Shown here piece after piece: positions 10,469-15,360 of a stretch of 38,227 bases of DNA (the first letter of the stretch is position 1; each line of letters opens with the position of its first letter). The notes under the pieces were generated by a model. That model made no database searches. It was not told where the DNA came from and saw only the letters and a list, made by a program, of their open reading frames with translations. The stretch is from a virus (Duplodnaviria; Caudoviricetes). Made by a program: the position numbers and the translations under genes. The stretch covers positions 1 to 38,227 of IMG/VR virus record IMGVR_UViG_3300012665_000204. One strand, 5' to 3'.

Positions 10469-10666
10469 TTATAAGACCTCCTCTATAGAATTGTAACCTA
10501 ATAAGTATAAATTATTTTTAAGCTTTTTTAGTGCTCTTTTTTCAATCTCACATACAGCTTGATGACTGATCCCCATCATAGTGCCAATTTGATCATAAGT
10601 GTAAGTATCAACCCTTCGGCAAGCTTTACAAGTGTAATACGGATCGCATTTACAAGCTTCATTCAT
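10469..10666 (-). CDS. Stand-alone sigma70 region 4-like HTH protein
   Basis: YTYDQIGTMMGISHQAVCEIEKRALKKLK matches the sigma 4.2 pattern; N-terminal CKC...CKAC. Confidence 0.8.
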   Translation of the reverse strand: MNEACKCDPYYTCKACRRVDTYTYDQIGTMMGISHQAVCEIEKRALKKLKNNLYLLGYNSIEEVL

Positions 10667-12302: not shown

Positions 12303-12500
12303 TTAAATTGCTTTTACTTTCCTGAGATCTATTACGGCTTGATCTAAGTGCTCAATGGTGCTCTCAATGTAATCGTATGTAGGCAGATTACCCCTTAAGT
12401 CCTTAATGGTCTCTGAAGCGTCTCTAAGCAAGGACTGAAGATAAATAATTCTACCTAATGAAGACATTTTGTTTAAATCAATCTCTGTTCTATATTTCAC
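12303..12500 (-). CDS. Early hypothetical protein
   Basis: GTG start with AGGAG SD. Confidence 0.75.
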   Translation of the reverse strand: MKYRTEIDLNKMSSLGRIIYLQSLLRDASETIKDLRGNLPTYDYIESTIEHLDQAVIDLRKVKAI

Positions 12501-12720
12501 GTTTTGCTCCTTTTGCGTTAATTAAATCAAAATAAGGACTTACTAATTTAATTGCTTCGAATACTGAATTGTTATTTTTGATTGCTCTACCTGTTTTACC
12601 TTTAAGCGTCCAGTGGTTTGTAATTGCGTCTAACTCTAATATTTTGCCGTTATCTAGAAAAAACTTAGTGTATTCGGTGTCATCTTCTCTAGTGATATTC
12701 CAGTGGTTTGTAATCTTCAT
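12490..12720 (-). CDS. First early gene, hypothetical protein
   Basis: TAAGGA SD before ATG 12720 (MKITNHW...). Confidence 0.75.
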   Translation of the reverse strand: MKITNHWNITREDDTEYTKFFLDNGKILELDAITNHWTLKGKTGRAIKNNNSVFEAIKLVSPYFDLINAKGAKREI

Positions 12721-12733
12721 TTTACTTTCCTTA

Positions 12734-12752
12734 TTAAGAATGATTCTCATTT
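12734..12752. promoter_or_regulatory. Fur box-like site
   Basis: Minus strand AATGAGAATCATTCTTAAT, 7-1-7 inverted repeat. Confidence 0.6.
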
Positions 12753-12781
12753 ACTAATTGTATTGCTTGCTCCGATGACTA

Positions 12782-12810
12782 ATAGTCTCATGCCATTATT
12801 AGGTCGTCAA
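12782..12810 (-). promoter_or_regulatory. Early sigma70-type promoter
   Basis: TTGACG-N17-GACTAT with extended TG. Confidence 0.55.
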
Positions 12811-12842
12811 TACCAATTACGGGAATTTCAGGGTATTTTTTA

Positions 12843-12879
12843 ATTGTATTTAACTATCGCATTGATTAATAAAATCTAT
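12843..12879. promoter_or_regulatory. OxyR-like binding site
   Basis: ATTG-N7-CTAT-N7-ATTA-N7-CTAT. Confidence 0.55.
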
Positions 12880-13026
12880 CACCCTGAGAGCCTTATACTT
12901 ATTGAGTTACTAGAGATCTCTAAACTAATGAGCCTGAATATCATCTCTTACTATGAAGGCTCCTAAGCCCCTTTAAAGCCCTTGTAATTGATTGTCATAT
13001 TAAACCCATGATTCTTTGAAGTTATC

Positions 13027-13219
13027 TAGTGAGTATGTACTAACTTAAGTACTGTATGTCTATCCAGTACTGTATAGGTTACTGTATAGGATCCTAAATA
13101 GCCCTATACACTTACCCTTTGTAGGGTCTCTAAAGTAAGTACTCACTAACCCTTAGCCTTCGGAGTACATGTAAGTAAGTACTCACTAACGTAACTCCGA
13201 AGTGACTGCTCACTAACTT
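13027..13219 (+). repeat. Four quasi-palindromic repeats resembling SlmA-binding sites
   Basis: Cores at 13029-13040, 13135-13146, 13175-13186 and 13202-13213, each followed by TAAC; AAGTAAGTACTCACTAAC exact twice. Confidence 0.75.
13050..13069. promoter_or_regulatory. LexA (SOS) box, Beta/Gammaproteobacterial type
   Basis: TACTGTATGTCTATCCAGTA, 17/20 to TACTG(TA)5CAGTA. Confidence 0.75.
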
Positions 13220-13361
13220 TGATGGGGGCTAGGGGTGACCTTCACAGAATTCTTTAACGGAACCCACAGAGATTCCTAAAAAGAAAAAACAAGCAATAGC
13301 TCTAAAGTAACTAAAAAGCAAGAAAAGTGACCTCTAACGTGACAAAAGAGAATCCCTTAAG

Positions 13362-13374
13362 AATCAACAGCTTA
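13362..13374 (+). promoter_or_regulatory. IHF consensus site
   Basis: AATCAACAGCTTA = WATCAANNNNTTR. Confidence 0.55.
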
Positions 13375-13526
13375 GTAACGACACTGTCCCCTTTAATGAT
13401 ATACAAATAAGTATAGTGTAAGTGAATGTCGGAGATGCCCACCCGAAGGGCTGTCTAAGATGTGCTAGGTGTGCTCCCCGAAGGGGCTACTAAGAGAAGA
13501 CATACTAAATAAATCTTACAAAGTAC

Positions 13527-13555
13527 TTGACAATGAAGAACTATTCTGTTATAAT
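13527..13555 (+). promoter_or_regulatory. Consensus sigma70 promoter for the packaging operon
   Basis: TTGACA-N17-TATAAT with extended TG. Confidence 0.9.
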
Positions 13556-13583
13556 AGTATCTAAGGAGTTCTATGTCGTTCAA

Positions 13584-13711
13584 ACACTAAGGGTGTTTTT
13601 ACTTAAGTAGATATAACTTATATTGTTATAACATTGATAGTTATAACTTAATAAGAAAAACAACTAATAAAGAAATACTCCTATAAGTTAACTTTAAAGT
13701 ATAGTAGGGCT
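13584..13711 (+). promoter_or_regulatory. Bipartite leader element, copy 2
   Basis: ACACTAAGGGTGTTTTT (13584-13600) and AAGTATAGTAGGGCT (13697-13711). Confidence 0.75.
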
Positions 13712-13742
13712 GTTCAAAAAGAACAACAACCTGAAAGGTGTC

Positions 13743-14117
13743 ATGTCTGAACTTGTCGTAAAACCTAAAGCGAAGATGGGTCGTCCTCGTAAAGAAGACC
13801 TTAAGAAAGCTAAAGCACCACTAGGTCGTCCTAAGAATGATACCGGTCGCTTAGCTGAATTTAAACAAAGACTCTTAGGAACATCAGGCAGTGCTGTCAT
13901 CGAGAAGATTATCCAGATAGGTCAGAACGATGACCATCCCGGACAGATGGCTGCATTGAAGATGGCAATGGATAGAATCTTACCGTTGTCGATGTTTGAG
14001 AAAGATGCTAAGGGTCAACGTAATGCCATCCAGATTAACATCACTGGTATTGGTGAAGCTAAGATTGAAACAGCTTCTGACTATGTCGATGAAGTAGTGG
14101 ACGAAGATGAAGCTTGA
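13743..14117 (+). CDS. terS: Terminase small subunit (putative)
   Basis: Directly upstream of terL; GRP AT-hook-like motifs; ALKMAMDRILP. Confidence 0.75.
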   Translation: MSELVVKPKAKMGRPRKEDLKKAKAPLGRPKNDTGRLAEFKQRLLGTSGSAVIEKIIQIGQNDDHPGQMAALKMAMDRILPLSMFEKDAKGQRNAIQINITGIGEAKIETASDYVDEVVDEDEA

Positions 14118-15360
14118 CTTTGAACTACTGCCTTGGCAGCAAGAGGTCTACAAAGACCCTACAAGATTTAAGGTTATTGTTGCTGGTCGTCGCTGTGGTA
14201 AGTCAAGATTGTCTGCCATCAGTTTGATTGTCGAAGGACTAAAGTGTCCTAAAGGTTCAGCAGTAATGTATGTAGCTCCTACGCAGGGGCAAGCAAGACA
14301 GATTATTTGGGATGTCCTCATGGACTTAGGAAGAGAAGTAATTGCGTCTTCCCACGTTAACAACATGGACATCACCTTAGTAAATGGTGCAAAGATTTAT
14401 GTCAGAGGCTCAGATCGTCCTGATACACTTCGTGGTGTCAGTTTAACGTATCTAGTGTTAGACGAGGTAGCTGACATTAAGAGTGAGACTTGGGAGAAGG
14501 TCCTACGTGCTGCACTGTCAGACAAAAAAGGGAATGCCTTATTTATTGGCACACCAAAGGGACGTAACTGGTTTTACGATATGTACAATATCGGTCTTGA
14601 AGAAGAAGACAAAGATTGGAAGTCTTGGCACTTCACCACCAAGGACAATCCGCTGATTGATCCTGAAGAGATTGAAGGTGCAAGAAAGAGTTTAAGTTCT
14701 TTTGCATTCAAGCAAGAATTTGAAGCAAGCTTTGATAACGCTGGTACAGACGTATTCAAAGACGCTTGGTTGAAGTATGGTGAAGAGCCTACCAACGGTG
14801 CTTACTACATCGCAATTGACTTAGCTGGCTTTGAGAATATGAACAACTCAGCCGAGCGTAAGAAGCGATTAGATAAAACAGCTATCGCAGTAGTTAAAGT
14901 AGATGAAGACGGTGAGTGGTTTGTTAAGAAGATTGAAACTGGTAGATGGGATATTCAAGACACTGCCAGACGCATCCTAAAGAACATAGCGGAGTTTAAA
15001 CCGTTAGCAGTAGGGATAGAGCGAGGAAGTCTTAAGAACGCTGTGTTGCCCTATCTGAGCGATCTGATGAGGTCTAACAATGTGTACTGTCATATTCAAG
15101 ACTTGACACATGGTAATAAGAAAAAGACTGAACGTGTGATCTGGGCATTACAAGGACGATTTGAGCATGGTAAGGTTGTCCTCAACGAAGATGAAGATTG
15201 GGATGAGTTTAAGGATGAGTTCTTAATGTTCCCAACACCACAAGTGCATGATGACTTGATTGACGCTTTAAGCTACATTGACCAACTAGCGGTTACGTCT
15301 TATTTCTCAGACGATAACTCCGATGAATATGAACCTTTGGATATGATAAGTGGATACTAA
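14107..15360 (+). CDS. terL: Terminase large subunit
   Basis: AGRRCGKS, LRG, VLDE, GTP, IDLAG, HDDLIDALSY. Confidence 0.96.
   Translation: MKLDFELLPWQQEVYKDPTRFKVIVAGRRCGKSRLSAISLIVEGLKCPKGSAVMYVAPTQGQARQIIWDVLMDLGREVIASSHVNNMDITLVNGAKIYVRGSDRPDTLRGVSLTYLVLDEVADIKSETWEKVLRAALSDKKGNALFIGTPKGRNWFYDMYNIGLEEEDKDWKSWHFTTKDNPLIDPEEIEGARKSLSSFAFKQEFEASFDNAGTDVFKDAWLKYGEEPTNGAYYIAIDLAGFENMNNSAERKKRLDKTAIAVVKVDEDGEWFVKKIETGRWDIQDTARRILKNIAEFKPLAVGIERGSLKNAVLPYLSDLMRSNNVYCHIQDLTHGNKKKTERVIWALQGRFEHGKVVLNEDEDWDEFKDEFLMFPTPQVHDDLIDALSYIDQLAVTSYFSDDNSDEYEPLDMISGY

Follow-up and report, generated by a model that had tools for sequence, protein, structure and literature searches.

A compact array of SlmA-type sites beside the likely packaging element of an uncultured lake phage

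The genome of an uncultured lake phage, available as the virus record IMGVR_UViG_3300012665_000204 and analysed here over its complete 38,227 bp (the window), carries a compact array of SlmA-type sites next to a conserved element that is likely its packaging site. Judging from the make-up of these sites, the array very probably binds SlmA of the host, and the best single reading of its selected function, which we advance tentatively, is a block of host cell division by way of this protein. The phage element is real and widespread, and apparently unpublished: searches of the literature on SlmA sites in phages and on phage DNA decoys, judged from titles and the beginnings of abstracts, returned no paper describing such arrays, and a search on geometry at packaging ends likewise came back empty. 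Two sequencing runs that contain a fifth of a 3-kb stretch of the window stem from a freshwater and an industrial-waste metagenome.

The array lies within a 1-kb non-coding gap separating a leftward block of replication genes that begins at 12750 (T7-like polymerase, primase/helicase, exonucleases) from a rightward block that begins at 13743 and comprises the terminase, portal, capsid, tail and lysis genes. The GC-skew minimum of the genome is close by, at 13391. No ATG-started ORF of 25 or more residues runs across the array, and three scans of phage ORFs, covering 50, 18 and 49 proteins, revealed neither a TetR protein nor any of the known FtsZ-inhibitor families. Away from the gap, at 10469-10666 on the minus strand, the phage encodes a 65-residue protein with a sigma-70 region 4 HTH, a candidate transcription regulator. 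The landmarks around the array are the following:

12782..12810, minus strand: candidate leftward early promoter, a script match (TTGACG-17-GACTAT) below the threshold of the promoter scan
13224..13292, plus strand: conserved element of G-run, dyad, ACCC and A-tract, referred to below by its G-run
13527..13555, plus strand: perfect sigma-70-type promoter (12/12 match) upstream of terS, its -35 hexamer kept in every close relative aligned
13743..14117, plus strand: putative terminase small subunit (terS), named by its position directly 5' of terL and devoid of PHROG, Pfam and NCBIfam matches
14107..15360, plus strand: terminase large subunit (TerL; phrog_2, E 3e-51; Terminase_6N)

The array itself and the motifs accompanying it are:

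13025..13044: weak distal SlmA-type site with 4 mismatches, an equivalent of which precedes a LexA-like box in the relatives L007 and L008
13050..13069: site resembling a LexA (SOS) box as in E. coli and Burkholderiales, which by itself lacks significance (25 of 100 shuffles)
13131..13150: SlmA-type site with 2 mismatches, core 13135-13146
13158-13166 and 13194-13202: arms of a 9-bp inverted repeat around the perfect site
13171..13190: SlmA-type site (core 13175-13186) that fits the degenerate 20-bp consensus without mismatch and agrees with the SBScons oligo of the literature at 19 of 24 positions
13198..13217: SlmA-type site with 3 mismatches, its end 6 bp short of the G-run

A preliminary description of this DNA had noticed four 12-bp cores resembling the SlmA site, each followed by TAAC, with two of them 40 bp apart and one enclosed by an inverted repeat. 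All of this holds: the cores start at 13029 (9/12 matches), 13135 (11/12), 13175 (11/12) and 13202 (10/12), TAAC stands 3' of every one of them, the 13135 and 13175 copies share an exact 18-bp repeat, and the inverted repeat surrounds the latter copy. As the 12-mer at up to 3 mismatches occurs in the window at chance level (16 observed, 17.4 expected), the copy at 13029 proves nothing by itself. The full 20-bp site has three matches in the window, all inside the 87 bp of 13131-13217, against 0.05 expected, and none of 100 shuffles reaches three; the SlmA-type sites in this interval are real. The inverted repeat is probably incidental; its hairpin is modest (z -2.2, with 6 of 200 shuffles folding equally well) and, of its arms, only the right one recurs regularly among relatives. 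The LexA-like box was identified with what we take to be the LexA motif, and recurs in relatives: L007 has two such boxes, L008 a single one.

What identifies these sites as SlmA-type? The SlmA-binding-site core is given as GTGAGTACTCAC in excerpts of PMC3116907, and the SBScons and SBS17 oligos, in the excerpted PMC4423959, extend it by GTAA/GTTA and TTAC flanks. The array has both the GTGAGTACTCAC-like palindrome and flanks of the GTAA/GTTA type. To viral sequences we applied the core plus TAAC as a 16-mer, leaving the 5' flank unconstrained; an estimated 540 or so viral stretches (extrapolated from 15 of 64 parts) contain it, as opposed to 2 for a rearranged control, and in the 121 loci retrieved the free flank came out as G (70 of 121), T (63), A (72) and A (95), as in SBScons. 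Applied to E. coli, the phage-derived 20-bp pattern yields 13 sites against 2 for the control, including SBS17, with none between 0.1 and 2.6 Mb, and so recovers the exclusion of these sites from the terminus. The best chromosomal sites found there have 2 mismatches, leaving the perfect phage site nearer to the consensus than any of them; with a looser 18-mer pattern the signal is lost, even in E. coli. The array thus shares the 12-bp core and the 20-bp flanked palindrome with the chromosomal SBS of E. coli and V. cholerae, but it resides on a lytic phage without slmA, its sites are 27-40 bp apart rather than dispersed, and it is fixed beside a likely packaging element. The identity proposed in the preliminary description is substantiated by the 20-bp flanks, by the terminus-excluded sites in E. 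coli and by a recognition helix that is identical in the candidate hosts.

These hosts we infer to be slmA-positive Burkholderiales. Searches with terL, capsid and primase retrieved distant matches only and no cultured close relative; blastn with the window or with the arrays of locus L225 found the array in no cultured phage, plasmids did not have it either, and 401 Burkholderiales genomes contained no relative of the capsid. A scan of bacterial genomes for tandem sites gave 21 matches, two of them on phage contigs that combine the array with a G-run and terS. The contig with four perfect sites belongs to a slmA-positive betaproteobacterial MAG, the other to a Chlorohelix MAG without slmA; their binning may be wrong. 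In the order of the former MAG, the Burkholderiales, slmA scores above the cut-off in 111 of 151 genomes, a tally that includes G025. The recognition helix SEAALYR and T33 are identical in all 43 aligned SlmA rows from 42 genomes. Among the residues that serve FtsZ regulation, F65 is kept in 42 of the 43 rows and N102 in all, whereas R73, which is needed for it in E. coli according to excerpts of PMC3573117, is kept in 3; other changes in these rows include L105M and F65Y, both of which E. coli SlmA tolerates (PMC3573117, excerpted). Predicting the complex between the SlmA dimer of a candidate host and the FtsZ tail of that host gave a score of 0.02, which carries no weight either way.

Chromosomal sites are not enriched over the order as a whole, with 54 sites against 51 for the control in 27 slmA-positive genomes (the four phage-contig sites removed). 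One species-rich Burkholderiales genus with small genomes of about 2 Mb, which we take to be probably Polynucleobacter, encodes slmA in each of 41 genomes; in 121 genomes it shows 56 sites, several of them at conserved gene boundaries, as against 16 for the control. On 11 dnaA-started chromosomes of this genus, only 3 of 49 matches fall into the terminus half and the span from 33% to 72% is free of them; here genome sizes are rounded, sites are partly orthologous and the control count is 26. This suggests that nucleoid occlusion by SlmA extends past enterics and vibrios; one literature search on SlmA in betaproteobacteria yielded nothing relevant. The type of LexA-like box seen in the phage occurs in this genus as well as in E. 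coli and many Burkholderiales. Examples of sites in the same genus are G087:C1:216954 and 1710984 and those at C1:145-204 in G436, G184, G404 and G407; one site is found repeatedly where dnaA begins or shortly ahead of it. In two related small genomes whose SlmA keeps R73, all exact 12-mer sites, 7 in G099 (C1, 211-496 kb) and 6 in G048 (C2), are gathered in one region. A 2-mismatch site precedes a gene that by eye resembles a phage protease, in a prophage-like stretch (L282, G056:C1:21885).

How could an array of this kind serve the phage? It would load host SlmA onto phage DNA, and multiplication of the phage genome would then disperse DNA-activated SlmA through the cell and stall assembly of the FtsZ ring, with no need for a phage-encoded inhibitor. 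With three strong sites per genome, some tens of phage genomes would presumably offer more sites than the few, weaker ones of the host. A cell contains 300-400 molecules of SlmA, which binds as a dimer of dimers (PMC4726725, excerpted). In E. coli, a multicopy plasmid that carries two sites disperses SlmA-site complexes and thereby keeps Z rings from assembling, as read at about fourfold overproduction of SlmA (excerpts of PMC3573117 and PMC4117426). From this work we carry over, by analogy, the notion that SlmA bound to multicopy DNA would prevent Z rings in the phage host. The plasmids concerned, pUC-2xSBS and p2SBSK, likewise present tandem sites on multicopy DNA and delocalise activated SlmA; the phage array differs from them in being natural and in facing a host SlmA that probably departs from the E. 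coli protein at R73. Against a division block stand the replacement of R73 in most Burkholderiales SlmA, the overproduction used in E. coli, the absence of an order-wide enrichment of sites, the use of the sequence by unrelated TetR regulators and the lack of any site at up to 3 mismatches in 37 of 57 relatives, some with terS 88-90% identical. Phage proteins that inhibit FtsZ are exemplified by lambda Kil and T7 Gp0.4; the outcome proposed here, infection without septation, is the same, but the array would achieve it without a protein.

The position of the array is more constrained than such a block would demand. Of 80 terS relatives, 61 extend at least 700 bp upstream, and 57 of these, array-bearing or not, have the G-run element, which from its place before terS and its dyad is likely a terminase cut or packaging-initiation site. 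A SlmA-type site at up to 3 mismatches is present in 20 of the 57. At up to 4 mismatches, 96 sites lie within 400 bp on the early-gene (left) side of the G-run, none on the terS side and one elsewhere; the closest one in most cases begins 22-27 bp ahead of the G-run, an offset represented in the window by the 13198 copy and occupied in most array-bearing relatives. When 120 loci were chosen by the G-run alone, 15 of these loci had sites: 19 sites on the left and none on the right. Similarly, 35 of the first 80 site-bearing viral loci are within 1.5 kb of a terminase gene and 34 of these are upstream of it; 30 belong to a second terminase family, unrelated to that of the window.

Since a division block needs no special place, the one-sided position at the G-run is the main fact that it leaves unexplained. 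It speaks for a local function at the end of the DNA, the strongest competitor, which we nevertheless consider somewhat unlikely: SlmA would bind, but as a protein coat beside the terminase cut that shields the free or first-entering DNA end from host nucleases or end-sensing defences, marks a boundary for the packaging motor or shapes a replication origin, so that any tightly binding host protein would do. Fitting with this, the GC-skew minimum is near, other kinds of repeats occupy the same place in relatives and keep almost entirely to the left side, and host motifs near phage ends have a loose precedent in the Chi sites of P1 (bioRxiv 2021.07.08.451572, excerpted). Speaking against it, contig ends do not pile up at the element in any of 80 loci of the second terminase family, contigs (as opposed to raw reads) of four sequencing runs give no genome-end signal there, and close relatives do without a recognisable array of protein sites; moreover, the right side may simply be taken up by terminase and promoter elements. 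Five of the 120 G-run loci do end 7-27 bp past the G-run, none of them shown to be related to this phage and all confounded by poly-G dropouts; the contig-end search with the pattern of the window's own family had 4 matches.

The stretch left of the G-run seems to be a place where DNA-binding proteins of the host in general dock or are decoyed. In the window's family, 59 loci were compared: SlmA-type sites occur in 23 of them and strict DnaA-type boxes in 18, and none has both at these thresholds; L073 combines DnaA-type boxes with a 4-mismatch SlmA-type site. LexA-like (10) and NtrC-like (6) matches in this family are confined to the left side, all these labels being assigned with what we take to be the DnaA, LexA and NtrC motifs. 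In the 68 loci of the second terminase family, SlmA-type sites are present in 2 and DnaA-type boxes in 18, and many contain tandem repeats of other kinds, as does DSL-LC05, for which excerpts of PMC10611076 give only predicted hosts; four annotated relatives of this family are free of SlmA-type sites. Many loci are near-copies, such that these counts do not represent independent events; the P value of an exclusion test is inflated by such near-copies and carries no weight here. Relatives whose terS is 88-90% identical lack the array, and the SlmA-site label changes at least three times on a TerL tree built by a quick method from which 5 short rows were omitted.

Clusters of DnaA-box-like 9-mers lie within 350 bp left of the G-run in L028, L030, L034, L053-L055, L057, L062, L066, L068, L069, L072, L073, L075-L078 and L080. 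Further fillers of the slot are TCTCA-N-TGTGAAA palindromes, AGGG-W4-CCCT, NtrC-like sites, GGTGGTGG runs and a CTGACCCACTGGG tandem array, in L001-L003, L013, L023, L034, L050, L065 and L442. Of these, AGGG-W4-CCCT proved not useful as a host marker, and a reading of the GGTGGTGG runs of L050 and L065 as Chi arrays is rejected, as they come from a single pair of similar loci and the abstract of PMC8022716 states no Chi motif for most Proteobacteria.

SlmA-type sites and DnaA-type boxes, which are among the commonest fillers, both correspond to proteins of the cell cycle. The division block could be one instance of something broader, a swappable, protein-free cell-cycle decoy cassette by the packaging site of abundant lake phages, in which SlmA arrays would activate a division inhibitor, DnaA-box arrays would soak up the replication initiator and the copy number of phage DNA would act as the switch for arrest; we regard this as possible, with less assurance than the division block itself.

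Could SlmA be bound for the sake of its removal or of transcription instead? The array might act as a sponge that draws SlmA away from the chromosome and so relieves nucleoid occlusion or transcription that depends on SlmA; alternatively, SlmA bound there might tune the early promoter of the phage. The best phage site has no mismatch and the few host sites have 1-3, a LexA-like box lies in the same stretch, and SlmA activates a V. cholerae promoter from 167 bp away (PMC5519180, excerpted). The array, however, lies at a distance of 215-390 bp from the candidate early promoter and coincides with none of the promoters found, and in E. coli the movement of SlmA to plasmids blocks division and does not release it (excerpts of PMC3573117 and PMC4117426), which makes such uses decidedly unlikely.

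The preliminary description had also considered an operator for another TetR-family protein. That other TetR proteins can read the SlmA-site sequence is indicated by the 19 tandem-site matches, out of 21, that are not phage contigs: in the five loci among them with ORFs listed (L207, L208, L213, L221 and L222), a TetR-like gene starts beside tandem sites identical to the SlmA site, and four of the ORFs tested have S-E-A-A-L-Y in common with SlmA. The alternative thus stands in principle, but for this phage a different host TetR protein of SlmA-like specificity is an improbable reader. The bacterial matches are mostly from high-GC actinomycetes, whereas the phage has a LexA-like box of E. coli/Burkholderiales type and a sigma-70 promoter, and in that group SlmA is the obvious candidate. 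In actinomycete and myxobacterial TetR autoregulation, the same palindrome occurs in tandem beside the gene of its own regulator; the phage array adjoins no TetR gene, and the proteins scanned contain none.

Equally improbable is a reader encoded by the phage, be it the terminase small subunit, as the earlier suggestion of terminase-recognition repeats had it, or another protein such as the small sigma70-r4-type HTH protein: the array does abut the likely packaging element and many site loci adjoin a terminase gene, but the repeats neither accompany the terminase (absent in 37 of 57 relatives, and present before two unrelated terminase families) nor track its phylogeny, they match the full 20-bp site of a host protein, and their being optional and exchanged for DnaA-box-like arrays argues against terminase repeats.

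Host-recognised motifs near a terminase site, or DNA that soaks up a cell-cycle protein, have counterparts in the IHF site of lambda cos, in the Chi sites of P1 and in datA, a DNA titration locus. The phage slot differs from these in that its filler is optional and interchangeable between SlmA-, DnaA-, LexA- and NtrC-type sites and other repeats. The present analysis contributes the placement of arrays on one side only, their exchange for DnaA-type arrays, the exclusion of sites from the terminus in a genus of candidate hosts and the caveat regarding TetR operators. If a division block is indeed what the array brings about, phages would turn a safeguard of the host against it by non-coding DNA alone, in a manner invisible to gene-centred annotation; the idea can be tested directly in E. 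coli K-12 with a 200-bp fragment. Further, the motifs in the slot could help to indicate the hosts of uncultured phages.

An additional conserved element of two hairpins lies at 13430-13492, past the G-run and ahead of the terS promoter, which is also present in relatives without an array. A search of 12500-14000 against Rfam gave two matches, both below threshold, and none for this element. Its second stem shows a compensatory change around a GNA triloop, in two variants that possibly trace back to one event, and the element could be a single-stranded DNA signal or a small RNA.
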